DNA of 64,000 nt, taken from the IMG/VR virus record IMGVR_UViG_3300036399_001571, positions 1-64,000 of that record; one strand, given 5' to 3'. This DNA comes from a virus. Made by a program: the position numbers and the translations under genes. Below are positions 1-52,835 of this stretch, piece after piece. The number at the start of each line of letters is the position of its first letter. The first letter of the stretch is position 1. Under the pieces are notes generated by a model. It did no database searches, was not told where the DNA came from, and worked only from the letters and a program-made list of their open reading frames with translations.

Positions 1-3000
1 GTGTTCCACGTTCACGAGCCATGTGGCGCATTTCTGCCTGTCGCACATCTTCGCGTGTCATTCCAAGAGCCGAAGCAGTGTCCATGAGCGATTCTCCACC
101 CATGCGGCGCTCAAATATCTCCCTGTCGGAGATGCCAAGCTCCTCTTGATTCTTTCTCTTTCCAGAAGACAGATTTCTTGCTTGACGATTGTCGTACTGT
201 GTTTCTAGATAATCCTGGTATAGCTGTGACGCAGCGTACGCAACATCTTGAGTAAATCTTTCTCCACCAGCACCATACTCGTTGATGTACTCATCCCGTG
301 TTTCGCCGTCAGTATCCATCCAATGGTCAAGGATTCTCTCGGCCTCCTTATCGGTGTGGCCAATCTCTCCCAATTCCCAAATCTGGTCTTTTCTTATTGT
401 CGTCTCTGGGTCTTCCCCTGGTGTATACAGGCTTTCCCCACGACGACCCCCACGACGGCCCGAGCTGAGTCCTCGTGACTCTGAATTAGCAAATTGTCTT
501 TGTCGTATTTGTCCTAGTTCACGACGAAGCCTGGACTTGTACTCATCTCCATGCCCCCTGTATTCCAGGCTCGACAAAATCTGTCTTGCTCTTGCTTCGT
601 CTCTTGCTGGTTGCATGGCTTTTAGCTTTTCATCAGCCAAATCGTAAGCAATATCATCATCGACTTTGTTGTCGTCAATTTGTATAAGGGTGAAGCCTTC
701 GTTTTCTTTATCGTTTTGCTTCTTCCACATATCTTCATCTGCAATCAAGAAGCCAGTTCCGTTGTCGGTATCGAAAGAAACTTCATAACCGTCATTTAAG
801 TATTCTGGAGTATCCAGTAGATTGCCATTTTCATCGTGGGTAATCACGATGTCTATGCCACCAGCGATAGGTGTAGGAGTGTCTCTTCTGGAGCTGTATT
901 CACTCTCTCTGAGCTCGATGTCGAAATCAGAGCCATCAACAATGACGCCTCGTCTTCCGTCGTTCAGGGTTACTGTGTTGCCGATAAAATCGGTTCCATT
1001 TGCTGAAGATATGGTGTCCAGGTCGACTAGGTAATCGTCTGAGAATGGGCCACTATCATCCCATCCACCGGTTGCGAACTCTGCGTCAATGTCTCCGCCG
1101 TACCCATCAAAAGATGCTGGTTTTGAATCTCTGGACATTGCATCATTTAGTGCTTCTTTTCGGCCAGAAGAAAGACGAGAACCATCAGTGTCTTGATTTT
1201 TTTCTCCTGCAATGAATTTCTTTATGTCGTCAATCGAGATGTTCCCAGTCATGTCTTCGTAGTACTGGTCGATAACATCTTGCTCTGATGGCACGACGTC
1301 TGGCTCTGAGCCATACGGTCCAACTGGTTCAAGTCCCCAATCGGTTCCAAGTCTTACATCTTCCAGGTCGTCAGAAGTTGGCGCTCCATATATGGCGTCA
1401 ACCACTTCTTCCTTGCCATAATCGTTGTATACATCAATTATTTCGTTGTGAGTTACGCCTGTATCAGGGTCAACATAGTCTGGGTGTATTTCAGGATTTT
1501 TCTCTAGTAAGTCGCTAAAAAACTCGTCGTTATCATTGAGTGTTAATTGGTTGTTTCTGTCTCTTTTTGCTTTTCCAGTATTCCAGTCGCTATCCCAGCC
1601 ACGATTCCTCCACGCATAGGTGGCTTGAAGGATGCCCTTCTTTTCGTCATTGTCAAGATTTTCCCATGACCGCAATTCTGGAGTTTTATCGGAACGACCA
1701 GAAGAAAGGCGTGAAGAATCAGGCATATACTCATCAGCACCACTCATGCTCTCAATTATCTTGTCGTAATCTTTTTCTGCCCATCTCTTCGCAGCTGAAG
1801 GACTGCTGAATGTTCTATCGACATCTTCATCAAGTGCGTTTTGTCCACCATTTCTGTAGATATCAGAGAAACGGGTTATTGAGTACTTACCCTTGCCCTC
1901 GCTATTGATTCGGTACATGCCGTCAATATCTGGCGCGTCCATCTCAAAACCGTCTTCTGTTTCTGTCCAGTTATTTGTTGGGGTTTTCCCATAAAACACG
2001 TAGTCGTCTATGACGTCTCTGGCACTCTTTGGCTTCTTTTTGCCAGAAGAAAAACCAGGTTTTTCTTTTAGAGTTCCATCAGCATTAGCGAGAAATGTTT
2101 CTTTACCTTTATTTCTCTTGACTCGGTCGAGACGCCTCTTCTCAATTCCCTCAGGCGAGAAAAGTCTTTCTCGTGCTGCTCTCGCTCTCTCGGTTCGTGC
2201 AGCCATTTCCTCATTGGAAACCCCTTGAATATCAGCTAATGCTCTTTGACGAGCCCGCTCTTCGGCTCTTTCGGCAGGAGTCAGACCTTCGTCTTCATCA
2301 TCTTCTGCATCCTCGTCAATTACGTCATCTTCAATAACGGGTCTTGGTTTATAGTTCCCGTTTTCATCCCACATTAGGAGGGATTCTTTTCCGTCACCCT
2401 TCGCTTTTGCTCTCTCGTAATTGGCAGCGCGACGCAGACGGCGCTCTTCTTCCCTCTCCTCCGGGGTTGGCTTCTTTTTGTCACCAGAAGAAAGCTTGCC
2501 TTCTGAATTGAGTTTGCGAAGTTCCTGAAGGTCTGGTCCTTTTTCTGTCCCTGAACCACCCTTCTTTTTTTTCTTCTTCAGCTTGTCAACATCCAAAAGA
2601 CCAATGTCATTTAGGTACTCGTTGAGGGTGGCGATGTCTTCTTTTGCCCAGTCCTGCGTGTCTGGGTACTTGGACTTAACATCTGCTCTCAGGGCTGATT
2701 CAATTCCGTCCCAGTTATCTGAGTCATCTCTGCTGTGTGCATCAAGATAGGCACTAACTGATTTTGCATAGCTCGAATACCAGTTACTGTATTCATTGGA
2801 AGCTTTTTGCTTCTCGTTAAACTTTTCAGGACGCTTTCTTACAGAGTCGCCATTCCACATAACACGTGCTTGGTTGACTCCGATTTCGCGACCACGGAGA
2901 TAGTCAGAACTTAAATTGTTATCTGCGTTGTAGCGTGGAACTTCTTCCCAGCCAAGACCCTGCTCATCCCATGCTTTAGCGATTGCTTCGTGGTCTACGC

Positions 3001-5062
3001 GCTTCTGATTTTCTTCAGCATTTGGGAATTGCTTTTCCATGTCGGCAGAACGGTCTGCATGGCGACGCTCATTACGCTTGCCAGAAGAGAGTTTTTCTGT
3101 ATCAGCAAGTTCGGCTCGCTGACTCATCTGCCTCTTTGATGGCTTCGGTGAATTGATGGAGCCAGGACCAGAAGGCGTTGGGTCGGGTTGTTCCCATGGC
3201 GTGCCGTCGCCGACCATGCTGTTTAGGTTTGCGTCTTCGACTGTTCTTGGGTCCCAGCCTGGAGGCGGATTTATACCGGAACCACGAGAGCGCCGACCCC
3301 TTTTACCGCCAAGATTTGGTCGGTCAATTCCTCGGCTTGCAATCGCACGACCGATACGGCGGCCAAGTGCTTTTTCTTCTATTTGCTCAGAAGCTATTTT
3401 TTTTTTTAGAAATTCATAAGCAGAAGATGCAGCTCTAGTTATAGCGTCCTTCGACTCTTCGCTGAGCGGTGAGTTAATCACGATTCCGTACTCGTTGACG
3501 GTTGTGTCAATTCTGTGGTAATCAAGAACTGGGTCAATTACCGACTTGAACTCAAATGCGTCTTCAAGATTTACTGGGATGACGTATGACGAGTCTTGAG
3601 CCAAGAATGGGTCGAGACCCTTTTCCTCAAGCTCTTGCTCCTCTACGCCCCACTCCTCAAGAGTCTTATAAGAGCGACGCTTTCTACGGCGCTTCTTCAC
3701 CGTGTTACGCAAAACCCCAAGAATGAATTCTCCAGGGTACTTCGCTTCGATGTCCTCAACCATCTTGATTTCTTCGTCATCAAGAATGTCGTTGTATTCC
3801 TTCTTGCCAAATCCGACTACAACACCATCTGGGATGATTGCGAATCTGCACTTGGCTTCATCTTCAACCTTGAAGTCAAGAATCTTGCACTTGCCTTCAC
3901 CTTGGTAAAGAACACAGTTTGAGCACTTAACGCCAATGTCTTTTACTTTGTTTTCTGCCGGAGGATAGTATCCAGCCCAAATTCCGTCGCCGTCTTCGTC
4001 AAACTTTCCGTACTTGCGAGCGATACGAACAAGCGATTCGGCAAGCTCGCTCTCTTCTGCACCAAGCTCTGGCTTTTTGTTCTTGTCAGAACCTTCGTAC
4101 TCAACAGGCGCCAATGGAACCATGACCATTCCGCCATTAACTGGCTTCATTGCTACAGGCATTGCCATTGCAGGGTTATTTGTCGACGGCTTATTCGGTT
4201 TGCCCATAATCCCAGGCATTGGCGAAGGGCCAGACTGGACTGGCGGTTTTGCCTGTTCTGCGTGAATTAATTCTGGCTTACCAAACATGTACTCGCTTCC
4301 AGTGAAGTGGTAACCAATTCTGAATTTTCCTTTTCCTGGCTTCACAAAGACCACAGAGTTCTCAGTCGCTTCAACAACCATGACTGGTCCTGCGGCGCGG
4401 CGTGAAAGTTCGGCAACCACTCCTGCAAGCTGTGGTCCACTTATTCTTTGTGAAACACCTTCGTCAAACAGTCCGTCTCGTCGTGGCTCTGATGATGGAG
4501 CGCTTATTGACATAGGCATCATCCCGTGCGTCTTCTCTTCATCGCTCTTAACCGAAATTGTTCCGGTTAGCTGATTGGCTCCATGGAGAACGGGTGAAAC
4601 TTCGTAGAGTTCAACTTCGTAAAGAACGTTTGCCTGAAGGTTTTCATCGTATTGAGCTCTGAGAGTTTTGTAGCCGATTGACCACTCTTGTTCTTCACCA
4701 AAGAAGGCGACGTTTGCGAATGCTTCTCTGCCTTTTTCTGACTGAAGATTGAATTGAACTTTCGCGTAAAGACCGCCGATTCCAGCCATTTTCATCTTCA
4801 TTGGAAGTCTTGGGTCTGATGCTGGAACTTCGTAAATTTCCAGAACTTTACCAATTGGGTCATTCCAGTTGTGGCCCCATACAACACGCGGCTTGCGACG
4901 CTGAAGGCTCTTAGCAAATGCACCAGTAGCGCAGATATCTCCTACAGAGTCCTTGTTTCCAATCCCCGAAACGAAACATTCAACAATGCCCTCTAGTTCA
5001 TCGAGCTTGATGAGACCATTGGAGGCCTTGTATTGAATATTTCCGAAGTTAGAGTTTGGCAT
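1..5062 (-). CDS. Giant prohead (capsid maturation) protease fusion protein, HK97/U35-type protease at the N-terminus; 3' end outside window
   Basis: Manual translation from ATG at 5062 (AAGGAG RBS upstream) gives 1687 codons with no stop to the window edge, which is why the ORF track omits it. The N-terminus has VWGHNWNDPIG, EWSIGY and EVELYEVSPVLHGAN (His/Ser/Glu motifs of HK97-type proteases). It lies directly downstream of the portal. Confidence 0.9.
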   Translation of the reverse strand, partial: MPNSNFGNIQYKASNGLIKLDELEGIVECFVSGIGNKDSVGDICATGAFAKSLQRRKPRVVWGHNWNDPIGKVLEIYEVPASDPRLPMKMKMAGIGGLYAKVQFNLQSEKGREAFANVAFFGEEQEWSIGYKTLRAQYDENLQANVLYEVELYEVSPVLHGANQLTGTISVKSDEEKTHGMMPMSISAPSSEPRRDGLFDEGVSQRISGPQLAGVVAELSRRAAGPVMVVEATENSVVFVKPGKGKFRIGYHFTGSEYMFGKPELIHAEQAKPPVQSGPSPMPGIMGKPNKPSTNNPAMAMPVAMKPVNGGMVMVPLAPVEYEGSDKNKKPELGAEESELAESLVRIARKYGKFDEDGDGIWAGYYPPAENKVKDIGVKCSNCVLYQGEGKCKILDFKVEDEAKCRFAIIPDGVVVGFGKKEYNDILDDEEIKMVEDIEAKYPGEFILGVLRNTVKKRRRKRRSYKTLEEWGVEEQELEEKGLDPFLAQDSSYVIPVNLEDAFEFKSVIDPVLDYHRIDTTVNEYGIVINSPLSEESKDAITRAASSAYEFLKKKIASEQIEEKALGRRIGRAIASRGIDRPNLGGKRGRRSRGSGINPPPGWDPRTVEDANLNSMVGDGTPWEQPDPTPSGPGSINSPKPSKRQMSQRAELADTEKLSSGKRNERRHADRSADMEKQFPNAEENQKRVDHEAIAKAWDEQGLGWEEVPRYNADNNLSSDYLRGREIGVNQARVMWNGDSVRKRPEKFNEKQKASNEYSNWYSSYAKSVSAYLDAHSRDDSDNWDGIESALRADVKSKYPDTQDWAKEDIATLNEYLNDIGLLDVDKLKKKKKKGGSGTEKGPDLQELRKLNSEGKLSSGDKKKPTPEEREEERRLRRAANYERAKAKGDGKESLLMWDENGNYKPRPVIEDDVIDEDAEDDEDEGLTPAERAEERARQRALADIQGVSNEEMAARTERARAARERLFSPEGIEKRRLDRVKRNKGKETFLANADGTLKEKPGFSSGKKKPKSARDVIDDYVFYGKTPTNNWTETEDGFEMDAPDIDGMYRINSEGKGKYSITRFSDIYRNGGQNALDEDVDRTFSSPSAAKRWAEKDYDKIIESMSGADEYMPDSSRLSSGRSDKTPELRSWENLDNDEKKGILQATYAWRNRGWDSDWNTGKAKRDRNNQLTLNDNDEFFSDLLEKNPEIHPDYVDPDTGVTHNEIIDVYNDYGKEEVVDAIYGAPTSDDLEDVRLGTDWGLEPVGPYGSEPDVVPSEQDVIDQYYEDMTGNISIDDIKKFIAGEKNQDTDGSRLSSGRKEALNDAMSRDSKPASFDGYGGDIDAEFATGGWDDSGPFSDDYLVDLDTISSANGTDFIGNTVTLNDGRRGVIVDGSDFDIELRESEYSSRRDTPTPIAGGIDIVITHDENGNLLDTPEYLNDGYEVSFDTDNGTGFLIADEDMWKKQNDKENEGFTLIQIDDNKVDDDIAYDLADEKLKAMQPARDEARARQILSSLEYRGHGDEYKSRLRRELGQIRQRQFANSESRGLSSGRRGGRRGESLYTPGEDPETTIRKDQIWELGEIGHTDKEAERILDHWMDTDGETRDEYINEYGAGGERFTQDVAYAASQLYQDYLETQYDNRQARNLSSGKRKNQEELGISDREIFERRMGGESLMDTASALGMTREDVRQAEMRHMARERGT
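161..3091 (-). repeat. Seven dispersed [LF]SSG[KRD] peptide motifs in the giant ORF
   Basis: KLSSGKR 3080-3091, KLSSGDK 2483-2494, GFSSGKK 2042-2053, RLSSGRS 1697-1708, RLSSGRK 1163-1174, GLSSGRR 458-469 and NLSSGKR 161-172. All are in frame with ATG 5062. Confidence 0.85.
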
Positions 5063-5181: not shown

Positions 5182-7254
5182 CTAAATGAACTGCCCGAAC
5201 TTCCATGCTCTTCGCGATTCGTCCTCGGCAATTTCAAATCTTTGCTTAGCCATGAGATTTGCGTACATGCTTACAACAGCACCACGGAAGGAAGCAGCTC
5301 TTTCTTCCTCGCCCATCACGGATAGCGAGTTGAACATCATCGAAGATATTTGATTGAAGTTGTCAAGATTCATACTCTTGATGCGTGACATCTGTGAATC
5401 AATCTGGGCATTGAGGTCCGACTGATTTATGCTCTTTTCAGACTTCTGACCGTATCCATCATTGTACGTATTAAACGCATCCTGAATGATTGCCGATATA
5501 ACAGGCCTTATGTCCTCGTCCATTTGCTTGTCCCAAACCTCGGGGGAGAGTATTGAGTCAATTTCTAGAGTTCCAGCAAACAGCGACTTCTTTGCCTTCG
5601 AACCGCTTGCCTTCTCAAGCACAACTCTTTGCTGTCTCTCGATAACTCGCTCAATGCTTCTGTTGAGAATCTCGTTCCATCTCGTTAGCGATTCTGCGCT
5701 TTTTGCCTGCAACTCGCTCTCGATTGACTTGTACATCATTCCGCCTGTTGGAACAGATGCGGCTCCGCCTGGAACAGGCTCTGCGGTTGTCGCAACAGCA
5801 GCAAGTGCCTCTGGCGGAATCGTGCTTTGGGCTAGCTGGTCTGGAGCCGGAGCGACTGGTGCTTCAACTTGAGCCAATGCACCTTGCATTGTATTTGGGT
5901 CAAGTGGTGGCTGTCCTTCTGCGCCAGGGATTGGGGCTTCTGGCATTGGTGCTCCAGGGACTGGCGCGCCAGGGACGCCAGGTGCGCCACCCATCTCTGC
6001 TGACGGAGCGGTTTCCATCTTCTTTTTTGTGTTCGCGATTGGAATCAAGTTTGGATTCATCAATAACGAGTCGGCAAGGTCGGCTTCAACTTCTTTTCTT
6101 CCTGAGCCTGTTCTGTACTCATTGTTGCTGATGAGGCCAGTTTGGAACTCCTGCATCAGATATCTTTCACGCTCTTGCTTGTAGAGCTGAAGGATTGGGA
6201 CTTCACTTGTATCGAAGTCAACGTAGTACTCGTCATCAAGTTCATCCAATGAGCGAGCAAGTGGCTCAAGGTGCGGGAGCATTGTTTCCATCCAGAACAC
6301 ACGAATTTCTTCGCTTGCATTGCTGAAGGTTCTTCCCGCAGCGTTTCCGATTACTGACTCTGGAACACCAAATGATGCAAGGATTTCTTCCTTTGTAATC
6401 TGTCGCATCTGAGCGTACGCAACGTCTCTTGGCGACGCAGAAGTGTCCACATAGTCAACGCCATCGTCGGCAGAGATAACCGTCGTATGACCCGCTCTTC
6501 CGATGTTCCCACGGAATCTGCTCTTTAATTCTTCCTTGTCATCGTCTTCGATTTCTCCACGCAAAACGAGCAGACCACCAGGTCTACCGTCGTTGAGCAG
6601 ATAGTTTCTGTTGTACAGCTTTGCAAGATTTTCAATTTCAATTGCAACACCAGCCGACTCAAGAGGCGTAAGTGACAAATATGGGTCAAGAGGGTGAGGT
6701 CTTCTAATCCAGCAAACATCCTCTGGTTTCATTGTGATTTTTTGACCGTAAGGCATTTGTACTTCGTACCCAGAAACAAACTTCTTTGCATCTGGAATTG
6801 GCGCTGTTGATTGAGGAGGCAAAAGGTTAAGACCAATTATTCTTCCGTCTCTACCACGAACTTTTTCAATGAAAACACCGCGTGTACCCAGCAAGAGTTG
6901 AGCGGACATTCTGTATCGGAAAATAAATGAGTTTTCACCAACGTTTGATTTAGTGTTTAGGACTTCAAGCAAAGAGTTGTTTTTTGCTCTGTTTCCAATA
7001 AGCACCTCTCCGTCTGGAGAATTGTCTTTACGAAGAATGATTGGGAGTCGTGCTTGGTTCCCAGCGATTGCATCGATGCATCTTGCAACCCAGGTAACCT
7101 TCTGCATGCCTTCGCGGTATGCGCGCTCAACATCCCATGAGTCTCTATAAGGTCGTCCTGCATAACTTGGGTTCTGCGCTATGGGCGCACCAGGTCCAAG
7201 CTCCTTGGATTGTGCGTTTGCGAGCGATTTATTGCTCGATTGATTCCATGCCAT
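5182..7254 (-). CDS. Portal protein (HK97 family) with Pro/Ala linker and C-terminal extension
   Basis: Portal motifs: WVARCIDAIA, LLLGTRGV, HPLDPYLSLTPLESA, NDGRPGGLL, GVPESVIG, FWMETMLP. It lies next to the protease gene. Confidence 0.92.
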   Translation of the reverse strand: MAWNQSSNKSLANAQSKELGPGAPIAQNPSYAGRPYRDSWDVERAYREGMQKVTWVARCIDAIAGNQARLPIILRKDNSPDGEVLIGNRAKNNSLLEVLNTKSNVGENSFIFRYRMSAQLLLGTRGVFIEKVRGRDGRIIGLNLLPPQSTAPIPDAKKFVSGYEVQMPYGQKITMKPEDVCWIRRPHPLDPYLSLTPLESAGVAIEIENLAKLYNRNYLLNDGRPGGLLVLRGEIEDDDKEELKSRFRGNIGRAGHTTVISADDGVDYVDTSASPRDVAYAQMRQITKEEILASFGVPESVIGNAAGRTFSNASEEIRVFWMETMLPHLEPLARSLDELDDEYYVDFDTSEVPILQLYKQERERYLMQEFQTGLISNNEYRTGSGRKEVEADLADSLLMNPNLIPIANTKKKMETAPSAEMGGAPGVPGAPVPGAPMPEAPIPGAEGQPPLDPNTMQGALAQVEAPVAPAPDQLAQSTIPPEALAAVATTAEPVPGGAASVPTGGMMYKSIESELQAKSAESLTRWNEILNRSIERVIERQQRVVLEKASGSKAKKSLFAGTLEIDSILSPEVWDKQMDEDIRPVISAIIQDAFNTYNDGYGQKSEKSINQSDLNAQIDSQMSRIKSMNLDNFNQISSMMFNSLSVMGEEERAASFRGAVVSMYANLMAKQRFEIAEDESRRAWKFGQFI

Positions 7255-8853: not shown

Positions 8854-9360
8854 ATGACACCAGAAAGAATACTTGAAGTTCGTCGATATCTGCTTGCCCT
8901 CGGTCAAGAGCTTGATGAATACATCAACTCAAACCCAGAGACGCAAGACGCTTGCGACATTCTCTACGAAATGAACATGGTCAAACGGGATATCTCAACA
9001 GTTTACGACTCGTTTTCAGTATCCGTGGGGCAACTAATCGCTGACGGGAAAAACATCCAGCTAAATAACGGCGGTGTGATTGAAAAGAAAAGCTCTTATG
9101 AGCGCCGTGCATGGCAACACAAAGACCTTGCAAGTGTTGTTGCTCAGAAACTTGTAAGAATGTCTGTCGACATTGATACTGGGGAAATAATCAAATCCCC
9201 TGAAGAGATTGCAATGCAGGTTCTTGACTACGTTCAACCTTCATACTGGAGAGTAAAAGAACTTTCCAGCCTCGGAATCAACGTAGATAACTACTGTGAA
9301 ACAGGTGTACTAAAAACAAGCATTATCGTCAGAAAGGGCGACGCAAATGACAAGCAATAA
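8854..9360 (+). CDS. Hypothetical phage protein
   Basis: 168-aa ORF with AAGGAC RBS; overlaps the next gene. Confidence 0.75.
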   Translation: MTPERILEVRRYLLALGQELDEYINSNPETQDACDILYEMNMVKRDISTVYDSFSVSVGQLIADGKNIQLNNGGVIEKKSSYERRAWQHKDLASVVAQKLVRMSVDIDTGEIIKSPEEIAMQVLDYVQPSYWRVKELSSLGINVDNYCETGVLKTSIIVRKGDANDKQ

Positions 9361-10009
9361 CATCTATCAAACTCTGTCAGAACCATTTCCAGCGGAGATG
9401 GAGAAGAGACTCAACAAGGGTGGGGCGAACCTCATCTACATCCCTGTAAGCGAAGTAATCAACCGAATGAACAAGGTTCTTGGGGTTGAGAACTGGTCGT
9501 TCACTGTTCATAGCTGGCAACAACTTGGAACATCGATTGTTGCTCACATTCAACTTCAGGCAAAAATTAATGGAGAAACCGTTCACCGCGACGGTGTTGG
9601 TGGGCAGAAAATCAAACTGAACAAACAAGGCGAACCAGTCGACATTGGCGACGAGGTTAAAGGTGCAGTATCTGACGCTTTAAAGAAGGCAGTCCAAACA
9701 CTCGGTGTTGGGCTTTACCTTGCGCGAAGCGAAGACGCAATTGAAATTGAACAAGTTATGGACAGCGAGATGGAAGCAGAGGCACGAGTGACACCTGAGG
9801 TTTCAACAAAGTGGGACAATTTCATGGGCATCGCAAAGGGGCTTTCTCCAGAGAATAGAGAAAAGCTCAATGAATATTGGAGCACATACAGCAATGGACA
9901 GCCAAAGCCAAAGCGTGAAACAGTAACCGAAGATGCTCTTGACAAGTTGATTGCAGAAGCGATTCGTCTTTCATTCGGCGGAGACTATGTGGTTGTAGAT
10001 GACAAGTGA
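9347..10009 (+). CDS. Rad52/Rad22-family (Sak-like) single-strand annealing protein
   Basis: YIPVSEVINRMNKVLGVENWSF, RDGVGG and KGAVSDALKKAVQTLGVGLYL. Confidence 0.88.
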   Translation: MTSNNIYQTLSEPFPAEMEKRLNKGGANLIYIPVSEVINRMNKVLGVENWSFTVHSWQQLGTSIVAHIQLQAKINGETVHRDGVGGQKIKLNKQGEPVDIGDEVKGAVSDALKKAVQTLGVGLYLARSEDAIEIEQVMDSEMEAEARVTPEVSTKWDNFMGIAKGLSPENREKLNEYWSTYSNGQPKPKRETVTEDALDKLIAEAIRLSFGGDYVVVDDK

Positions 10010-10802
10010 GCTAAAGGCTCCTGACTACTTGTCAGCATCTTCCATTGGGACATTTAAACAGTGCCCACAGAAGTTTAAGTTCAACAAAATTGACCTAATC
10101 CCAGACCCATCTAACCACTGGGCGGTATTAGGTAATTTTGTCCACGACATTCTTGAAGAGATGTATAAGCTCCCAGCTGAATTGCGGACACTTGCAAACT
10201 GTCGCCCATTAGCGAAACAGATATGGGATGAGAAGTGGGCAGAAGAAGCAATGAAAGTTGTTGACGGCTTTAAGGTCACTTACAAAATAGTCTCTCTTAG
10301 CGATGCTGAGGCGTTGAATAAATTTCGTTGGGCTGCATGGTTTTGTGTTGAGAATCTTTGGAACCTAGAGGACCCACAGAAACTTGAACCAACTGGCCTT
10401 GAATATGAACTAAATGGAGAGATAGCCGGAGTAAGGCTTCGTGGATTCATAGACAGATATAGCCAGACAGAAGGCAAAATGTCACTGACCGTAAGCGACT
10501 ACAAAACAGGCAAGACACCAAAGTATGACCTAGACGAAAAGTTTTCTCAGCTTTTAATTTATGCAAAACTTCTAATCAACCTTGGCGTTGGCGATGTCGA
10601 CAAAGTTGAACTTTTGTACCTCAAGGACGGAGTGAAACTCACGCGAGAAGTAACTCACTCTGAAATAGTAAAACTTGAAGAGATGATTCAAGAGACAAAG
10701 TCGCAAATAGATGAAAAATGCAGGACTGGTGAGTTTGAAGCAAAGACTTCGTTTCTGTGTAATTTTTGCAGTTACAAACGCATATGTCCGGCGTGGAGAT
10801 AA
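9999..10802 (+). CDS. PD-(D/E)XK RecB-like exonuclease
   Basis: LSASSIGTFKQCP, GNFVHDILE, LRGFIDR, VSDYKTGK, QLLIYA and C-terminal CNFCSYKRIC. Confidence 0.9.
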   Translation: MTSELKAPDYLSASSIGTFKQCPQKFKFNKIDLIPDPSNHWAVLGNFVHDILEEMYKLPAELRTLANCRPLAKQIWDEKWAEEAMKVVDGFKVTYKIVSLSDAEALNKFRWAAWFCVENLWNLEDPQKLEPTGLEYELNGEIAGVRLRGFIDRYSQTEGKMSLTVSDYKTGKTPKYDLDEKFSQLLIYAKLLINLGVGDVDKVELLYLKDGVKLTREVTHSEIVKLEEMIQETKSQIDEKCRTGEFEAKTSFLCNFCSYKRICPAWR

Positions 10803-12588: not shown

Positions 12589-12920
12589 GAAGCGCACCTA
12601 TTAGTCAAGTTGAAATTGAACAAGAGATGCTCAGGCTCGTTGGGGAACTAGAAAAAGAAACTGAAGCATTTGAGGTTTTAGCCGTTGAGGCGGCCAAGAA
12701 AGAAGCAAGGTACAAGTCGAACTGGGCAAAGGAATATCTCGCTCGTTCTGGCTCAATCAAGGAACGTGAAGCTTGGGCCGACTATAAGCTTGATGACGTT
12801 AACTATGAATACAAGATTGCAGAGGCTCTTGTTAAAACAAAACGAGAAGCACTATTATCTTTGCGAACATCAATAGATGCAATGCGAACACTTAATGCAA
12901 ACGTGAGAGTACAGGTATGA
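12585..12920 (+). CDS. Hypothetical coiled-coil protein
   Basis: Start MRSAP overlaps the ruvC stop (ATGA). Confidence 0.7.
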   Translation: MRSAPISQVEIEQEMLRLVGELEKETEAFEVLAVEAAKKEARYKSNWAKEYLARSGSIKEREAWADYKLDDVNYEYKIAEALVKTKREALLSLRTSIDAMRTLNANVRVQV

Positions 12921-13711
12921 GCGGAATACATCCTTCTTTAAAATCACTCGCCGTAGACATCGACACTCTTGACTATCTTGAGGGGAATCCGCGAATAGGA
13001 AATGTTGAAGCAATCATGGCTTCATACTCAGAGTTCGGTCAGGTTAAGCCAATTGTCGCCAAGAAAAACGACGATGGAACTGCAACTGTTATCGCAGGTA
13101 ATCACCAACTTGAAGCAGCAGTCAATCTCGGATGGGAACAGATTGCGGTTATTTTCCTAGACGCCGACGACAAAAAAGCAATTGCTTTTGCTCTTGCCGA
13201 TAACAGGACAATGGAGCTTGGTTATACAGAACCAGAGCTCTTAACCGACATGCTTCTAGAAATTAGCGAGTACTACCCAGACCTTCTTGATGGATTGGGC
13301 TGGGACGAATTCGAACTTGCATCAATGGAAAGCGACATGATAATTGAGCAAGCAAGAATGGATAACTCCGAAGAAGAGATTCCACAGACTAGAGAACAAA
13401 TAGCAGAGCAAAAAGTTTACGACGATGCTGTTGACTCAATAAAGGGAATGGTTCAAAAAGATGATTCTGGAGAAAACAGAATCGTTGCCAATTCGAATCT
13501 AGACCATTCTGATATTGCTACTCGTGGCTCCACTATTGCTGTACCGGGCTCAGCTCCACAGGCAGCAGTTCAATACACAATTGTTTTTGATAATGCAGAC
13601 CAGCAGGCTCTGTGGTACAAATTTATCAAGTGGCTGCGTTCTGACCCAGCTGTTGACGGAGACACCACGGCAGAGAAATTGATTAACTTCATAGACCCAC
13701 ACATGCCATGA
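12917..13711 (+). CDS. ParB/sulfiredoxin-like domain protein
   Basis: NPRIGNVEAIMASYSEFGQVKPIV, VIAGNH and ALADNR. Confidence 0.85.
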   Translation: MSGIHPSLKSLAVDIDTLDYLEGNPRIGNVEAIMASYSEFGQVKPIVAKKNDDGTATVIAGNHQLEAAVNLGWEQIAVIFLDADDKKAIAFALADNRTMELGYTEPELLTDMLLEISEYYPDLLDGLGWDEFELASMESDMIIEQARMDNSEEEIPQTREQIAEQKVYDDAVDSIKGMVQKDDSGENRIVANSNLDHSDIATRGSTIAVPGSAPQAAVQYTIVFDNADQQALWYKFIKWLRSDPAVDGDTTAEKLINFIDPHMP

Positions 13712-14853
13712 CCAGACAAAGAATGTTCTTGAACATTTCTTGCGTGGAAGCTGCGCGCCAAAGAATCAGGCATGTCTACGACCAGTTCGACACTGTGTGC
13801 GTGCAGTTCTCTGGTGGCAAAGACTCAACGGCTGCTCTGCTATTGGCAAAGGAAGTTCACGAGGAACGTGGGCTTGGACCAGTCAAAGTTATCTTCAGAG
13901 ATGAAGAGATGGTTAGCCCAAAGACAATTGAATATGTTGAAAGAGTAAGGAACTACGACTGGGTAGATATGGAATGGTATTGCCTTCCATTCATTGCTGA
14001 AGTTTGGGTTCTTGGAAAGCGTGAACGAATCCTTCTATGGGGCGCTCTTCGCGGAAGCGAGGGCAGGTGGGTTAGAGATATGCCACCATGGGCAATCAAT
14101 GCTCAAACACTTGGATTGAATCCAGCCATGTCTCTTCCAGAGCAAACCGACTATTACACAATGCAGGGAAAGGTCGGCAACGTTGCCTTCATCACTGGTG
14201 TTCGTGCAAGTGAGTCAATGGTTCGTTATCGCTCAATTGTTCAGAAGCTTCATGAAAATTACATCGTTACTCCATACAAGCTAAAAAGAGGAATACCTCT
14301 TAAGTTCGCAAAGGTCATTTACGACTGGAATACGGATGATGTTTTCAAGTTCATAGTCGAAGAGCACGGTTCTGATTATTGCGAGTACTACGACCTTGCA
14401 GCTTTGACTGGCAGCAATACGCGAGTCGGTATCCCACTCCACTCCATTGCTATCAGAAGAATCGGAGATGTGGTTGCCACCGAACCGGAATTCTACGACA
14501 AGCTTGTTGAGTGTTTTCCGCACATTGACGCTCAAAGAAGAATATGGAAAGACTTCGATGTTGAGAAGTTGATTTCTAAGTATGCCAAGGATGGTTTTAC
14601 TGGTGCATCCAACTTCATCAATGATTTTATTATTGGCGAAGAAGCAGCTCGGTCTGCAAGAACTTTCGTTGCGAAGTTTAGGCAGAAGCACGCTATAGAC
14701 CCAGGCGGGTATCCACTCAATTATCTAATTAGAACTCTTCTCCTAAACCAGTTTGACTCAAACTCACCGACACCAGTTGGCCCCAAAACAAAAGCTCATG
14801 CCGTAAGAACCATTGAATCGACGGAGGAACAAAGTGAAACATTTGAATATTAA
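13708..14853 (+). CDS. PAPS-reductase/PP-loop family protein (IbrA/DndC-like)
   Basis: FSGGKDS PP-loop, FRDEE, ITGVRASES and IYDWNTDDVF. Confidence 0.85.
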   Translation: MTRQRMFLNISCVEAARQRIRHVYDQFDTVCVQFSGGKDSTAALLLAKEVHEERGLGPVKVIFRDEEMVSPKTIEYVERVRNYDWVDMEWYCLPFIAEVWVLGKRERILLWGALRGSEGRWVRDMPPWAINAQTLGLNPAMSLPEQTDYYTMQGKVGNVAFITGVRASESMVRYRSIVQKLHENYIVTPYKLKRGIPLKFAKVIYDWNTDDVFKFIVEEHGSDYCEYYDLAALTGSNTRVGIPLHSIAIRRIGDVVATEPEFYDKLVECFPHIDAQRRIWKDFDVEKLISKYAKDGFTGASNFINDFIIGEEAARSARTFVAKFRQKHAIDPGGYPLNYLIRTLLLNQFDSNSPTPVGPKTKAHAVRTIESTEEQSETFEY

Positions 14854-20652: not shown

Positions 20653-23600
20653 ATGGCAGACGAAAAAATCGTCATAAAAATTGATGTAGACGCAAGGACT
20701 ACAGCTATTGAAAAGACGACGCAGGCGGTTAAGCGTCTCAAGCGCGAGGCTGGGAAGTTCTCATCTGGGCGCAGCGACGTAACTTCTTATCTAAACACAA
20801 TGGATAAGAGTTTAACAAAAAGCACAAGCAAATTAAAAAGACATTTTGACTTCATAGATAAAGGGGTCAAAGCTTTTGGTGGTGTGTTAAAGAAATTTGT
20901 GTCTGTAGCCTTAAAGGGAATCATCCTGGAAATGGCCGCTCTTGGCGCAGCGATGCTTGGTGTCCACGCTTTATTTGTCGCTGGCAAATTCTTAGCCAAG
21001 GCCTATTCGGGGGCGATGCAGATATTAGCCGGAGGTGCAGCAGCCGCCACGGTTGCCATTGCCACTGCAGCAGCTGCGATAAGGGAACAGCAAGCTGCTA
21101 TGTACGCATACCGCGGGAAAGGCGCTAAAGAACTTGGTTCTGGATTAGACCAGGCACGAGCAGGAATGCGCGCCTTGCAAATGGATGCAGACCTAGCTGG
21201 TCTGGGTGTAGCTGCACTGAACAAATCGTATGCAGTCATGTCGAAAACAATGAGCACACCACAAATCAATGCAAGTACAGGTTTGTTCAAGGGTCTTATG
21301 GACTTCGGTTCTGCTGGTCAAGACCCAGCAGCCGCAGCAGAAAAAGTTGCGGCAGTAATTGAATCTCTTTCAAACTCAAAGAAGAGTCTTTCTGATGTTA
21401 AAGCTGCCGCAAATGCTGTTGGTCCAGAAATGGCAGAAGCACTAAAGAAAGCAAACGTAAAAACAAAAGACCAACTTAAACAATTGATTATGTCTGGAAA
21501 GCTTGCTGAGTTTGGCGGTGTTGCCGGGCAGTTTGATGCTGTTAACAATACTCTTATTGGTAAAGTCAAAACATTTTTTAACTTAGTAAAAGGTCAATTT
21601 GCTGACTTCGGACAGCAGTTTCTAGAGCCAGCAAAAGTAGCAATGCAGAAGATATTCAATATCATCTCTCGCGACCTAAGAAAGTTGATGGTTTTAACAT
21701 CCGATTTTGGCACCGGAACGTTCATGGACTCACTTGTAGCTGGTGTCGACAAGGTCAGTTCATTCATGGTCAATGTCATTGAAAAATGGCTCCCCAGGAC
21801 CCAGGGGTTCTTTACCAAAATAAGTAACTGGTGGAATTCATTTACCGGCGGCTGGAAGAGAATGGTCGATTCTATGCGTCCGTTGATTGATGGCGCGCGT
21901 GTTCTTGAAAAAGCATTTTCACCAATTTGGGCAGCGATAAAACAGGGCGGAATCGACAACCTAAACAACTTCAGAGAAGGACTAATTGAAAACGAAACCG
22001 AAGTTCTTGAGTTTGGGAATAGGGTGGGCGAACTTATATCTGGTATTTCAGATTTTGCCCAAGGTCTAAAGAAAGCATTCTTCGATATATTGCCAATCAT
22101 CAATGATGTTGTTGGTGGTCTCACCATGATGTTTAAGCAAGCAGCTGGATTCATGACGATGTTCAGCGGTAAGGGTGCCTTTCTTAGTCTTCTTCCAATC
22201 TTGACCATGTTCCTTGGTGGCAAGAAAATGGGGGCGACCAAGGGTGGATTCATGACTGCTGGGAGCATGGGTCTTCAGAACATGAACGTCAATGCACAAA
22301 ACGTGACGATAACAGGGACTGGTCCTGGTCCAGGTGGGCCACGTGCTCCGACACCAGGGCCTGGTACGCCAGGTTTTTCTAGCGGCAGAACAGGTGGGGC
22401 TCCAGTCCCACCTGGATACACGACCACATCAACTGGTCTAATAGTTCCTAGCAGTCCAAGAGTTATCCCTGGAGCACCTGGTGTGAGCGGAGCGCTTCCG
22501 CATACCGCTGCAGCATACGGTGGCCCAACTGCAACGGCACAACAAAGCGCGGGTATGCGGCCAGGCGTTCACTCGTATGGTGCAAACTTCGGCGTAGCAA
22601 ATGCATTTGTTCCTGGAAATTTTGCAGAAGGTAAAACTGGTTTTAGAAAAGGTATTGGGCGATATAGGGATTTTGCCATGAAACAAAGATACATGCGCAC
22701 ACAATCGGCCTATGGTTCAAGCCTCTTTGGGAACGAAGCACTTGGCAAAAAGGGCATCAATAACAGCATGACTGCAAAAATGGGAACCGCAATGGCTCTC
22801 AGTACTATGAGTCAATTTGCACCAGAAGAAATGCGTGGAGCAATGGCTCTTGGTGGCGCTGTTGGCGCATTTAATCCATTGGCCGGAATTGGTATCGCTG
22901 GAATTGGTGGAGCAATGAAAGCTCAAGGAGCAGGAAAGGGCGCACTAGCAGGAGCTGCTGGCGGTGCTGCAATGGGTGCATTCTTTGGTCCGGCAGGAAT
23001 CGCGATAGGCGCAGGAATTGGTCTTCTTGCTGGCGGAATAATGGGTGGTGTAAACGAAGTTAGACAACGAGCAAAAGAAGCACGCGCTGCAATTAAGAGC
23101 TCTGTTGGAAGTGTTCTTACAGGGATAATGACAGAACGTTCAATTGAATTTCAAGACAACCTCAATGCAGTGAACCGTGGAGGAATAACAACGGGTCGTC
23201 GCGGCTCACTTGAAGGTGTTGGCGCTGATTTCATTTCAAAAATGGCACCACTGTCAGAAAAAGCAAAAGATGCAAATCGTACGCGCAAAGGCGAACGCTA
23301 CTCGGATGTTATGAACTCAAACATCACAACAGCGGCAATGCTCAAGACACCACTTGCTCCATTGGGTGTTCTGAGAGCAAAGGTTCGCGTAATGAGCGCA
23401 CTAATCCCAGACATTATGGACGTTGGTTCTCTGATAGGTAAAATACCTGGTGCCGGGAAATTAAACAAATTACCAGGTGTTGGTGCTATAAAAAGCACTA
23501 TTGGGATGGATGTAAAAACAGCACGAACTGGAAGAAACGAAGCTTTCATTCAAGACCTGTTTGATAATCAAGCCAAGTATGGCATGAAGATGACAGAAGA

Positions 23601-41713: not shown

Positions 41714-42248
41714 GGTTGGAATAGTATCTCTTGGCAATATGGGTGTGACAATTGCTCACAGCGTTATTAATTCTGGGCATATTGTCCACTGGACATCAGA
41801 AGGTCGTTCTGAAACGACAGTTGCCGCAGGCAGAAAAATAAAAGATGCCATAGAACACGAGTCGGTTAAAGAACTATTTGGCTCAGTAGACATTTTCATT
41901 TGCATCGGCAGAGGTGGAGTTGCAGAGGAAACAATAGAGCTGGCAAAGAAGTACGCATTTACAGGAATATATGTAGACGGCAACAATCTCCACGGTCTAG
42001 AATCAGAACTGAATATTGCATCAATAGCGGAATCTGGCGGGATTAATTATGTGGAGGCTCTTTTCCGAGGCTATCCGCTTGGTTATGACCAAGGTGGAGG
42101 AGAGGACAAAAGAAATTTATATCTTTCAGGTCTGTGGAAGTCAGCAAAAGTGATTGAATCACTATTCGTTGACGGAATATGGAAAGTAGAAATTGTTGCA
42201 GAGTCAGCAAAAGCTTTAAACCGAACAAGATTTAAAAGACTTTTTTAA
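41706..42248 (+). CDS. NAD(P)-binding Rossmann domain (6PGD/3-hydroxyisobutyrate dehydrogenase-like N-terminus)
   Basis: KVGIVSLGNMG and YVDGN motifs; only 180 aa. Confidence 0.7.
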   Translation: MSKVGIVSLGNMGVTIAHSVINSGHIVHWTSEGRSETTVAAGRKIKDAIEHESVKELFGSVDIFICIGRGGVAEETIELAKKYAFTGIYVDGNNLHGLESELNIASIAESGGINYVEALFRGYPLGYDQGGGEDKRNLYLSGLWKSAKVIESLFVDGIWKVEIVAESAKALNRTRFKRLF

Positions 42249-42985
42249 TGGTTTTGTGTTTTATGCTCGCCGACTAAAACCTGTTTTTGTTGGCTATTCA
42301 GCAAACCAACATCTGACCTGAATTTATTAACCCAATCATAAGCGCCTGGTTTATTTTCTTGGCCATTACCGTGATAAAACCACGACAGAAATGCCCAGCG
42401 CTCTCCACTTGTGACTTCATCTACTTCGTGGCAACCAATAAAATTAGATGGATATATAAGTGCGGAGCCAAACTCCGGTTTTGCATTTATTCCCCAGGTC
42501 CTGAATCTGACGTCCCCGCCTGCATAGCCATCATTTATAAAAATTGATGTTGTGAGCGTGTTGAAAGCAGGGCTTGTTGTTAGTGGTTCCAATGTTCCGG
42601 GTTTGTAAGGAATGTTGCAGTCTGAATGCGGCCCCATTCCATTGCCAGTTAGGTATCTAATTAGGTATCCATCGGTTTGACCAGTTATGCACTCCGTTGC
42701 AACAGGAAAAATTTTGCAGTACTCCACAGCAGCTGAATAAATTGCTTTTCTTAGCAATGTTGTTATCCCGAGTTCTTCTATGTCCGTGTATCTGCTTGGA
42801 GCTGCTTGCTTGCCTTGTTCGTCAAATTCATAACCACCATCACTTATAAGCTTGCCGTCAATAAGCGAATAACCCTGAGGAATCTTTGCATTGGCTATAT
42901 GCAGCAATTCGTTTTCGTCAATTTCATCACGCTCGATTAGGCCATAAACGATGGCTATCCCATGACCCAAGTGTTTGATTTTCAT
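42245..42985 (-). CDS. 2OG-Fe(II) dioxygenase
   Basis: HSD, FINDGYAGG and HEV..V.SGERW. Confidence 0.9.
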   Translation of the reverse strand: MKIKHLGHGIAIVYGLIERDEIDENELLHIANAKIPQGYSLIDGKLISDGGYEFDEQGKQAAPSRYTDIEELGITTLLRKAIYSAAVEYCKIFPVATECITGQTDGYLIRYLTGNGMGPHSDCNIPYKPGTLEPLTTSPAFNTLTTSIFINDGYAGGDVRFRTWGINAKPEFGSALIYPSNFIGCHEVDEVTSGERWAFLSWFYHGNGQENKPGAYDWVNKFRSDVGLLNSQQKQVLVGEHKTQNH

Positions 42986-43872
42986 GCGTGTTCACCCATT
43001 GCCAGTCGATATGTATTAGAAGATTTTTCCTCGCCAACCGATTCCAGATATTCAATAAATCTTTCCCTGAGATGCGGGATATAAACATTGGAGGATACAG
43101 CCGCTTTTTCTGGGTTGACGAGAGGGTCTTCAACTTCTTCGTTAACTGATGGATTTGGCGTTCCATGAGCGTACCATCCAAGATAGGTGAATCTGTTGCC
43201 TGATTCAACCGGAGTAACTTCATGCGCAGCAATATAGTTTGATGGAAACATCAAAACATCGCCTCTTCTTGGAATGTACTCAATATCCAAATATGTAAAC
43301 TTATGATGCCCACCTGTAAAGTCACCCAGCTCAAAAACTTTCTCCCCATCTAGGCAGTTACCAAAATAAACCAAACATGACAGTGTGTTTCTTGAAGCAA
43401 GCTGATGTTGAGGGTGTGGTAATCCATAAACATAGTCAACGCTCGTGTCGCTATGCTCCCCTATGAAACCCCCACACTCGGAAGAGTAATTGACTAAATG
43501 TCCTTTCACTTTCCACCATATGTTTTTGAAAACAATTGGGAACATGTGCATATATCTGAAAAGATATTTATCTTTGCATTCCTCAATAAAACAAAATAAT
43601 TCAGCTACTTCTGGTCTTGTGTCCTGGTGTACCCTAGACCCCCTTCTTGGCATTCTATCTATCCCATTTTTTGAAAAAAAATAACCACTTCTGTTAACAT
43701 ATTCTTCCAAGCCATTGTCTGGATTGATAGCCGGCTGGTACATATCGCCCATCTCTCTGTCAACAATTTCTTTAGATATTCGGTTAACGTAATCCCAATC
43801 AAGGCTTATGGCGTTACGAAATACAACAACACCACCACCAAGATGTTCGGCTTTAGAGTTGTTAAAAATCAT
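42982..43872 (-). CDS. 2OG-Fe(II) dioxygenase (LGGG subfamily)
   Basis: HLGGGVVVFRNA, HSD and HEV..V.SGNRF. Confidence 0.9.
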   Translation of the reverse strand: MIFNNSKAEHLGGGVVVFRNAISLDWDYVNRISKEIVDREMGDMYQPAINPDNGLEEYVNRSGYFFSKNGIDRMPRRGSRVHQDTRPEVAELFCFIEECKDKYLFRYMHMFPIVFKNIWWKVKGHLVNYSSECGGFIGEHSDTSVDYVYGLPHPQHQLASRNTLSCLVYFGNCLDGEKVFELGDFTGGHHKFTYLDIEYIPRRGDVLMFPSNYIAAHEVTPVESGNRFTYLGWYAHGTPNPSVNEEVEDPLVNPEKAAVSSNVYIPHLRERFIEYLESVGEEKSSNTYRLAMGEHA

Positions 43873-44729
43873 TGATGGTCATCTTTTCTTGATTTGAATG
43901 GAGTCTTTCCTGATGGTATCTTACCCTCATCACCATATTTATCCATTAAGTATTGTTCGTAGTCTTCAACTATGGTTTTCATCCACCATTGTCCACCCAC
44001 CGGCCTTTGTGCGGAATCCGTTGGCTCTTGCGGTGAGACCCCTTTGTCTTGTTGCGGGGAGCCCTGTGCAAACCACGAAAGGTATGAGTACCTAGAACCT
44101 GAAGTTACTTCTAGTATTTCATGAGCGCCCAAGTAGTTTGCTGGCATAAAAAGAATTGTTCCACTTTTAGGTTTTATGGTTATGTCAAAATACGGCAAAA
44201 CCATTTCTCCGCCAGTAAATGAATACTCATCGCAATCCGATTCATCGCAATTATCGTTTATATAGAGGAGAGCACTTATGACGTTTCTAGTGGCGTGCTC
44301 AAAAGGAGGGAAATGACCATACCTGTAGTTGACATCGTTGTCGCAGTGGAAACCCAGTTTTGAGCCAGATGGATATTTAAGTGCGTGCCCTTCGCTTTTC
44401 CACCAAAGACACTGCAGTACAGCGGGAAACATTTCTACATACTCAAGTAAGCACCTGTAGATAGCTTCTTCGCACTCTATAAAGAAACCGTGATTCAGCT
44501 CTTGAACTCTTATTGGAGTTTTTGATATTTCATTAAGTTCGTAAATAAAACCACTTTTGTTTATTGCGTGAATTGGTTTTCCGTCAATATCGTATACATA
44601 CTCATACTGTGCTTTTATGGCTGCGTCAGAAAGTTCATCTATCAGGCCTGTAATCTCCACGACTGGAACATTTACTGCATCCCTGAATACAACTACACCA
44701 CCACCGAGATTTTCCACATTGAAAGACAT
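43869..44729 (-). CDS. 2OG-Fe(II) dioxygenase (LGGG/HxDND subfamily)
   Basis: NLGGGVVVFRDA, HCDND and HEI..V.SGSRY. Confidence 0.9.
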   Translation of the reverse strand: MSFNVENLGGGVVVFRDAVNVPVVEITGLIDELSDAAIKAQYEYVYDIDGKPIHAINKSGFIYELNEISKTPIRVQELNHGFFIECEEAIYRCLLEYVEMFPAVLQCLWWKSEGHALKYPSGSKLGFHCDNDVNYRYGHFPPFEHATRNVISALLYINDNCDESDCDEYSFTGGEMVLPYFDITIKPKSGTILFMPANYLGAHEILEVTSGSRYSYLSWFAQGSPQQDKGVSPQEPTDSAQRPVGGQWWMKTIVEDYEQYLMDKYGDEGKIPSGKTPFKSRKDDHQ

Positions 44730-44738
44730 GTCAGTATG

Positions 44739-45389
44739 TTAGTCAGTTTTTTTAACCACCGGAGATTCTATGATTGGTCTATCCGTGTATATTCCCCAAT
44801 CTGCATTTGGGTTTACTCTGGGTTCAATTGGGCTAAGATTCATGCTTACAACAATCCTTGGACTTTCAATCATTTGCCGTGCTGTCATGTGGGTAATAAA
44901 TGAGTTAAAAATAATCAACAGTCCATCTTGCGGCTTAACAGAAATAGTGTTGTGCATATAACCACACCAGTGCGCTGAAAAAATTAAATCCGCAGAATCA
45001 AGTGGGGCAGATGGGTAGTAAGCAATAGAAAAATAGTCACCAGGGTGTGTGTGATGGTTTTTGTAATGACTGTGAGCTATCACACTCTGCCCAGGCATTA
45101 ATTTTATCGCCCATATTTCATCAATTTTGTATTTACGATTTGTTACTTCGTCAACAATTTGAACAATTAATTTTTCAAGTTTTGTGAATTCAGGTGTTAC
45201 TGGAACAACTGTATCTTCATACTGCACAAAACCACGACTTACTGAGCCATATTCTTCGCAATCTGCATTAACTGGAAAACCGTATAAGTTTATATCGGAC
45301 ACAATCTGTTCATTGTCTATGTCCAAAAGCTGCGATGTAAATATGTTTTGATTTATTAAAGGAATAGTATTTATTTTACTCATATACAA
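44739..45389 (-). CDS. 2OG-Fe(II) dioxygenase (HxH type, TIGR02466-like)
   Basis: HSH, SIAYY, GLLIIFNSFITH and RIVVSMN. Confidence 0.8.
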   Translation of the reverse strand: MYMSKINTIPLINQNIFTSQLLDIDNEQIVSDINLYGFPVNADCEEYGSVSRGFVQYEDTVVPVTPEFTKLEKLIVQIVDEVTNRKYKIDEIWAIKLMPGQSVIAHSHYKNHHTHPGDYFSIAYYPSAPLDSADLIFSAHWCGYMHNTISVKPQDGLLIIFNSFITHMTARQMIESPRIVVSMNLSPIEPRVNPNADWGIYTDRPIIESPVVKKTD

Positions 45390-47560: not shown

Positions 47561-47561
47561 T

Positions 47562-48323: not shown

Positions 48324-48633
48324 TTTCAGACGCCTTTGCCAACTTGTAGTTCCAGTATGCCTCTCGTGCAATACTTGTCATCTTTACATTTATTTTTGCC
48401 AAAAATCTTGGTATTGAATTAGACGTATAATCAGCGCTTGCGCCTCCCCTAATGTCACTGCTGTACTTCCAGAGCTGGCGTATTTTTACAGCTGCGTAAT
48501 CAATCCTCATTGAATCAATGTCGCTTGGGTCTTGGTCTGTAATAAAACATATGACCGCAAGTTTTTGTTCATTTCTTTTGGCGTCTTTTTCGGCGTCGTA
48601 CAAGTTTGCTCCGCCACTTTCCCTAGTTCTCAT
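48313..48633 (-). CDS. Hypothetical protein
   Basis: Fills the operon and overlaps its neighbours; start uncertain. Confidence 0.6.
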   Translation of the reverse strand: MRTRESGGANLYDAEKDAKRNEQKLAVICFITDQDPSDIDSMRIDYAAVKIRQLWKYSSDIRGGASADYTSNSIPRFLAKINVKMTSIAREAYWNYKLAKASENGQ

Positions 48634-48931: not shown

Positions 48932-48940
48932 AACCGCCCA

Positions 48941-49174: not shown

Positions 49175-49183
49175 GTTGGAAGC

Positions 49184-49420: not shown

Positions 49421-49465
49421 GGCTGCTCCGTAATCCGTACGTTGGACAAGTACCCATATTCTACA

Positions 49466-50898: not shown

Positions 50899-50902
50899 GA
50901 AA

Positions 50903-52066: not shown

Positions 52067-52084
52067 GTCAACAAGACTACCAAA

Positions 52085-52831: not shown

Positions 52832-52835
52832 AAAT

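Follow-up and report, generated by a model that had tools for sequence, protein, structure and literature searches.

Positive-strand RNA viruses encode polyproteins in which an embedded protease of the 3C or NS3 type is paired with junction sites. In tailed phages such as T4, phiKZ, and SPN3US, prohead proteases cut head and ejection proteins at three-residue motifs; T4 gp21 cuts L/I-x-E, SPN3US gp245 cuts A-x-E with a preference for Ser at P1′, and the phiKZ protease is gp175 (PMC10052503). Polyvalent proteins, which occur in phages and in conjugative elements, were proposed to be injected together with the DNA and to be processed by an embedded peptidase, the assemblin-like peptidase always being C-terminal (Iyer, Burroughs, Anand, de Souza, and Aravind 2017, PMC5512222), and one polyvalent virion protein, the 2,811-residue gp47 of phi24B, has been detected experimentally (bioRxiv 10.64898/2026.04.10.717836). 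Here we describe a giant gene of an uncultured phage that joins an S78 (HK97-type) prohead protease to a long series of unrelated modules, separated by a recurring four-residue peptide that we call the junction tag. The gene begins in a stretch of 64,000 nucleotides (the window), the first 64 kb of one 172,519-nucleotide IMG/VR virus record (IMGVR_UViG_3300036399_001571). Comparison of related sequences suggests that the chain is a polyvalent cargo protein and that the tag is most likely its proteolytic junction code.

The start codon of the polyprotein gene is preceded, 5 nucleotides upstream, by AAGGAG, and the open reading frame (ORF) of 1,687 residues is open at its 3′ end, where it meets the window edge (Table 1). 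It was absent from the default ORF list because ORFs running off the window are not listed. The two ends of the contig overlap. Its final 127 nucleotides are identical to window positions 1166-1292, and window positions 1-1292 as a whole share 81% nucleotide and 83% protein identity with the last ~1277 nucleotides of the contig (G000:C1:171243-172519), indicating that the ends are two alleles of one gene stretch. The duplication is therefore an assembly overlap via a strain variant, and the gene is not present twice; that variant closes the record into a circle, the first ~1.2 kb is redundant, and the window ORF is only the first half of the gene. Read across the join, from G000:C1:172519 down to a stop codon at 166570, the gene encodes a protein of ~3,239 residues with 16 [LFM]SSG motifs and one LSSR. 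Another IMG/VR contig, the independent L005, runs through the join without a break at 98% identity, and the ORF is intact in 25 distinct relatives, where it is 2,874-3,702 residues long.

The N terminus of the polyprotein was matched by Pfam Peptidase_S78 (PF04586) over residues 26-173, with an E-value of 1.1e-9 and 39.1 bits against a cut-off of 21, and by PHROG 80, "head maturation protease," at E 2.5e-25. A sequence search of the S78 domain against the PDB gave no match. The domain is ~90% conserved among relatives, and an alignment of 21 of them shows no change at His64 (VWGH) or Ser128 (EWSIGY), which we take to be catalytic by analogy with His65 and Ser114 of HK97 gp4. The gene lies between those for the portal and the capsid protein, all on one strand, and the portal gene directly upstream places the polyprotein in the head-assembly module. 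From this gene position alone, the cargo of the polyprotein would be expected to be packaged in the capsid. The protease domain is followed by a conserved carrier region that is free of tags and comprises a Met/Pro-rich linker, a block of four cysteines, and another conserved domain. The carrier region matched no known family, and the leads it gave in the ESM Atlas were all below threshold. The four cysteines (C380, C383, C392, and C405, in the pattern IGVKCxNC...CKI...KCRFA; window 3845-3925, minus strand) are kept in 25 of 25 relatives, and the block may be a zinc ribbon.

Beyond the carrier region, [LF]SSG[KRD] occurs seven times in the window ORF, at the residues listed in Table 1. The number expected from composition is 0.016, and no more than two copies were found in any of 5000 shuffles. 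The tripeptide SSG occurs nowhere else in the 1687 residues. Leu, Ser, and Gly codons all vary between copies (for example, AGC TCG for the two serines at residue 1532), showing that the tag is not a DNA repeat. The 216 unique contexts collected from the relatives share [L>>F>M]-[S>A]-S-G as a fixed core; Lys, Arg, or Ser is frequent at position -1, and basic residues are frequent at +1 and +2. In the 25 relatives the tags are the sole conserved residues at the joints, and LSSG is the most frequent tetrapeptide in nearly every one of these proteins. At the first joint, for instance, the flanks are 17-30% identical and L-S-S-G is retained. Order-promoting residues are scarcer in the ten residues on each side of the tags (0.17-0.19 versus 0.28). 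AlphaFold modeling of 981 residues placed six of the seven tags in coil with a predicted local distance difference test (pLDDT) score below 50, between folded domains, and the seventh in coil just before the first helix of the ArdC module; by this model, the tags sit in disordered linkers.

Much of this anatomy had been described in an original prediction made from the letters of the window alone. An ORF of at least 1687 residues with the protease first and a long extension behind it was confirmed by the ORF scan, Pfam, and PHROG, and the seven motifs with their differing Ser codons were found exactly as it had placed them. Extension to the left, where that prediction had looked for additional motifs, yielded the full-length gene and the motif count given above. 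The part that did not hold was the final residue of the motif, [KRD], which lies outside the conserved core.

Approximately 15 unrelated modules follow the protease and carrier region in the full chain. The segments of the window ORF showed no similarity to one another by BLAST at E ≤ 1e-6, and ten single modules searched against Pfam at E ≤ 1 gave nothing credible. The downstream modules that Pfam recognized were Sigma70_r4-type helix-turn-helix repeats, an ArdcN plus MPTase-PolyVal pair (the ArdC module), and a weak WYL match. The ArdC module (ArdcN, PF08401, E 3.7e-26; MPTase-PolyVal, PF18818, E 1.6e-42) begins 3 residues past one tag, stops before the next, and spans positions 6-311 of the 324 in PHROG 7245, showing that this tag-bounded unit corresponds to a whole stand-alone protein. 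When the 25 proteins were cut at their tags and the pieces clustered, a conserved core order was seen together with a variable middle, in which the relatives have the same module families in other orders and numbers. In one relative, 98% identity over residues 1-862 gives way to a complete loss of homology exactly at the tag at residue 857. Among 203 internal homology breakpoints, 30% fell within 5 residues of a tag compared with 5% at random, and the median distance from breakpoint to tag was 16 residues compared with 69 at random, figures that are subject to the tendency of poorly conserved linkers to draw alignment ends towards themselves. These observations support the exchange of modules at tag boundaries. 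They agree with the earlier expectations that mutually unrelated segments are fused behind the protease, that the motifs are kept in homologs while flanks and segment content vary, and that segments are swapped between motif boundaries.

The tag is not confined to the polyprotein. When the proteins of the genome were searched for a tag followed by a basic residue, only two further carriers were found apart from scattered single chance-like matches, namely a second giant protein (giant protein 2) and the tape measure protein. Giant protein 2 has 4 tags, all of them C-terminal and none before residue 1633, and its tag-bounded modules occur as separate or duplicated units in related genomes. Its N-terminal ~1,250 residues are conserved in related genomes and include a zincin with the sequence HEIAH near residue 590. 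The tape measure protein has tags at residues 36-39 (nucleotides 20758-20769) and 575-578 (nucleotides 22375-22386), the latter in a Gly/Pro-rich linker. Both keep their aligned places in relatives with 45-50% identity, which suggests that one enzyme processes this tail protein and the head cargo alike. The tag is absent from the major capsid protein and from P0003, the probable scaffold.

A profile-free search with residues 1-661 against 1.84 billion representatives returned 3,683 proteins at E ≤ 1e-3, including dozens of proteins of 1,400-5,358 residues with an N-terminal S78 domain. Sister lineages have tags of other classes. In the class G-[LFM]-[A/R/S]-S, GMRS is found 21 times and GLAS 13 times in single chains, and a chain of 5,358 residues has 26 copies of GFAS or GLAS, usually followed by RG. 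Other sister-lineage tags are [DE]-[TS]-G-x-M-[SA], [DE]-A-G-M-[AS], and G-P-V-G-x-M; the polyproteins with such alternative tags include P0066, P0047, P0048, P0108, P0105, and P0090. Common to every class is Leu, Phe, or Met followed by a small residue. One GMRS-type genome has 24 copies of its local tag in the polyprotein and 5 in giant protein 2, and its tape measure protein bears GMSS and GMRS within the Gly/Pro-rich linker that holds the site at residue 575 here. All three carriers thus use the local tag, showing that the tag is a property of the genome and not of one protein. A tag that is shared by three proteins and changes in all of them together argues for one reader per genome.

In the mechanism that we propose, the phage would supply the protease, most likely the fused S78 domain, and each tag would be cut through recognition of Leu, Phe, or Met plus a small residue, the core that is constant in all lineages. 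Cutting would break the chain into separate proteins that enter the next host along with the DNA, and giant protein 2 and the tape measure protein, both of which bear tags, would be substrates of the same enzyme. As to the scissile bond, cutting either after or before the Leu, Phe, or Met would fit every tag class. We hold only tentatively, at a little under even confidence, that the S78 domain is the enzyme that cuts the tags and so releases separate delivered proteins. It is present in cis in every tag-bearing polyprotein found, with His64 and Ser128 invariant, and the prohead proteases of other phages cut ejection proteins at short motifs. The capsid protein aligns with its relatives from residue 1-5, indicating that it has no propeptide, and with P0003 untagged as well the S78 domain is left without another obvious substrate in this phage, although cuts at other sites in these proteins might occur. 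A core of Leu, Phe, or Met plus a small residue in all tag classes also fits a protease that is nearly invariant.

That same invariance, however, is among several points that weigh against the S78 domain as the reader. It is 74-78% identical across the LSSG, GMRS, and GxM[SA] lineages, and between 24 LSSG-class sequences and 27 clusters of the G-Phi-x-S class (where Phi is Leu, Phe, or Met) it differs at one conservative column. A single class-specific column among 51 clusters implies that the enzyme is not tracking the flanks of the tag. Because the tape measure protein lies outside the prohead, its two conserved tags would be out of reach of a protease confined to the capsid. The protease domain is not parted by a tag from the 480 residues that follow it, although a site for self-release might be expected there. 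Giant protein 2, encoded nearby, contains a second intact protease, whose fold resembles that of site-specific enzymes. The cultured actinophage relatives with large protease fusions (DalanDe gp27 and Cece gp68/gp70) have no such tag; the relatives of the present polyprotein are all uncultured. The original prediction that the fused protease carries its own cargo and cuts it is therefore upheld with respect to the fusion, but the S78 domain as the only cutter is weakened by the tags of the tape measure protein, the untagged capsid and scaffold-like proteins, the invariance of the domain, and the neighboring zincin.

This zincin, a zinc endopeptidase in the conserved N-terminal body of giant protein 2, might itself cut the tags, with Leu, Phe, or Met at P1′, leaving the S78 domain to another task in head maturation; we regard this as possible but rather unlikely. 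The HExxH motif and two downstream glutamates (H190, E191, H194, E288, and E292 of the aligned stretch) are unchanged in 27 homologs. An AlphaFold model of the zincin (pLDDT 77) gave as its best match, by VIA-align, the catalytic domain of anthrax lethal factor (1yqy_A; Z 10.1, root mean square deviation 4.0, 185 residues aligned), followed by the Pro-Pro endopeptidases PPEP-3 and PPEP-2 (Z 6.7 and 6.6). Lethal factor and PPEP-type enzymes cut defined linear motifs, and a hydrophobic P1′ residue followed by a small residue is compatible with every tag class. Nevertheless, the likeness is at the level of the fold, with a Z-score of 10 and no match to the PDB by Foldseek or to Pfam, and the zincin could equally be an injected effector directed against host proteins. 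The zincin is present in all three tag classes examined, as is the S78 domain, which makes presence or absence uninformative about the reader. Its sequence changes quickly (37-49% identity inside the LSSG class, 25-30% with the GMRS class, and no detectable similarity to the GxM class, compared with 74-91% for S78), but fast divergence is not in itself evidence of co-variation. The zincin also meets the same problem of access to the tape measure protein as the S78 domain, and a cut before Leu or Phe would leave that residue at the N terminus, where under the N-end rule it is a degradation signal in bacteria.

The metallopeptidase within the polyprotein is a much weaker candidate. MPTase-PolyVal has an intact HExxH motif in 21 of 21 aligned relatives, and Iyer et al. 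(2017, PMC5512222) proposed an autoproteolytic role for such domains in polyvalent proteins. In sister lineages, however, at least 25 polyproteins that bear tags have no HExxH anywhere, P0047 with its 21 tags being one of them, and the motif is likewise absent from the L106 polyprotein, with 24 tags; we have set the ArdC-type MPTase aside as scarcely credible. Cutting by a protease of the host, which would account for one tag on tail and head proteins alike, is easier to entertain but still very unlikely. Staphylococcus phage 80alpha does use the host protease Prp. Closely related phages nevertheless carry different tags, each consistent across three proteins of one genome, and this does not suit a host enzyme. 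The tag may, finally, not be cut at all and instead be a docking motif, such as a signal for loading of ejected proteins, a hinge or threading signal for tail passage, or a site of modification. All tag carriers are proteins expected to leave through the tail, and very large virion proteins without such processing have been reported, phi24B gp47 and the N4 virion RNA polymerase among them. Modification of Ser is improbable because sister tags of the AGMA type have no Ser, and a whole stand-alone ArdC module together with the exchange of cassettes at tags suits release better than tethering; we consider an uncut tag unlikely, though less so than a host reader.

More broadly, we judge the chances to be evenly balanced that these phages belong to a superfamily of freshwater phages, comprising hundreds of clusters, whose capsid-protease polyproteins of 1.4-5.4 thousand residues are dissected by a lineage-specific code (LSSG, G-[LFM]-x-S, or G-x-M-[SA]) that also appears in the tape measure protein and in another giant protein. 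Such a code would serve as an index of the injected proteins, with the cassettes as an exchangeable library of mostly unknown early effectors, and the work may be divided between the S78 domain and the lethal-factor-like zincin. If the tags are cut, a peptide of four residues tells from the sequence itself which proteins are packaged and injected by a phage, with their bounds, and each genome offers ~15-25 candidate early effectors, most of them without a known family, in hundreds of uncultured phages. The findings also raise the question of why the ruler protein of the tail and the cargo of the head share a code.

The coordinates of the polyprotein, its junctions, and the neighboring genes are collected in Table 1. 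P0003 has Cys clusters and a C-terminal 'GSYPI..DLRNAIQAFGRAKDK' domain that is 60% identical to the C-terminal ends of the protease fusions of Gordonia and Microbacterium phages. It has no sequence likeness to the carrier region of the polyprotein and is probably the scaffold. The end of giant protein 2 was considered as a location for the capsid protein and rejected, the capsid gene lying elsewhere in the genome. The last module of giant protein 2 (residues 2319-2652) gave weak ESM Atlas leads of the OspC/DUF3626 type (ART-like), at 0.86-0.87. The host is presumably a freshwater actinobacterium, judging solely from the nearest cultured relatives, which are actinophages. Between the terminase and tail genes, the plus strand of the window encodes a Rad52-family annealing protein and a PD-(D/E)XK/Cas4-like nuclease (9347-10802) and, further on, a ParB-like protein followed by a PAPS-reductase-like protein (12917-14853). 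On the minus strand, positions 42245-54189 hold ~15 genes of 200-300 residues each with the look of a paralog array.

Table 1. Features of the polyprotein locus and of related genes. Coordinates are window positions unless a genome or contig is named.
Feature	Coordinates	Strand	Basis or remark
5′ part of protease-cargo polyprotein gene, 1687 codons	2..5062	-	ORF scan; start ATG 5062
S78 (HK97-type) prohead protease domain, residues 26-173	4544..4987	-	Pfam, PHROG
Conserved carrier region, residues 174-657, tag-free	3092..4543	-	Alignment of relatives
Junction 1, LSSGK, residue 658	3077..3091	-	Junction at this place in 25/25 distinct relatives
Junction 2, LSSGD, residue 857	2480..2494	-	Variable middle starts; homology to 98%- and 83%-identical relatives ends
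Junction 3, FSSGK, residue 1004	2039..2053	-	Motif
Junction 4, LSSGR, residue 1119	1694..1708	-	Motif
Junction 5, LSSGR, residue 1297	1160..1174	-	LSSRR in variant copy at contig end
Junction 6, LSSGR, residue 1532	455..469	-	Motif
Junction 7, LSSGK, residue 1631	158..172	-	Motif
Redundant allele stretch	1..1292	.	81%-identical copy of contig end, ending in 127 identical bases (1166-1292)
Portal protein gene	5182..7254	-	Pfam Phage_portal E 9e-49; immediately upstream of polyprotein gene
Tape measure protein, 1,486 residues	20653..25113	+	Assigned by position after tail assembly chaperone
Giant protein 2, 2,652 residues	L001:3070-11028 = G000:C1:157069-165027	-	Two genes downstream of polyprotein
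P0003, 482 residues, very acidic, Met-rich	L001:10985-12433 = G000:C1:164984-166432	-	Follows polyprotein
Major capsid protein gene	genome 152368..151013	-	47% identical to Gordonia phage DalanDe capsid protein

In our survey of the literature on polyvalent proteins and polyproteins, no published junction peptide of this kind was found, nor any paper joining "LSSG" with phage and cleavage. The nearest cultured counterparts are fusions in actinophages. Gordonia phage DalanDe gp27 (1633 residues) has an S78 domain 43% identical to the one described here and is likewise a large fusion encoded before the capsid gene, but its protease is near the C terminus. Microbacterium phage Cece gp70 is also a large protease fusion, of 1548 residues. 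The DalanDe and Cece fusions share with P0003 of the present phage a C-terminal 'GSYPI..DLRNAIQAFGRA' domain. The tag is absent from DalanDe, Cantare, and Cece, and the DalanDe and Cece fusions have no recurring junction peptide of their own.

With the phages T4, phiKZ, and SPN3US the present system has in common a capsid protease of the same clan and a short motif that recurs above chance in head proteins (16 times in the polyprotein and 4 times in giant protein 2). In those phages the protease cuts many proteins inside the head, and this cargo is ejected into the host. Their substrates, however, are separate gene products that lose N-terminal propeptides, whereas here a single chain is fused to the protease and the tags lie between modules. 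The distribution differs as well, in that the capsid and scaffold-like proteins are untagged here and a tail protein is tagged.

The similarity to the polyvalent proteins is closer. As in those proteins, disparate domains (ArdC-N, MPTase-PolyVal, helix-turn-helix, and peptidase) are combined in one chain encoded in a phage head module. A single chain here contains S78, Sigma70_r4, ArdcN, MPTase-PolyVal, and WYL, with the signature domains PF18818 and PF08401 among them. Unlike the polyvalent proteins of Iyer et al., the chains described here have their peptidase at the N terminus (residues 26-173 of ~3,239), an arrangement found in hundreds of clusters; they contain a recurring, lineage-specific junction peptide, of which none was described there; and they reach 3,000-5,358 residues with up to 26 tags.

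Finally, the arrangement resembles the polyproteins of RNA viruses in having an embedded protease and short conserved junction peptides between unrelated products. The two are not homologous, a DNA phage could use separate genes, and the phage cargo is probably delivered by the virion, unlike the replication machinery of RNA viruses. If the tags are cut, these DNA phages would have polyproteins built of exchangeable cassettes, a strategy so far known mainly from RNA viruses.

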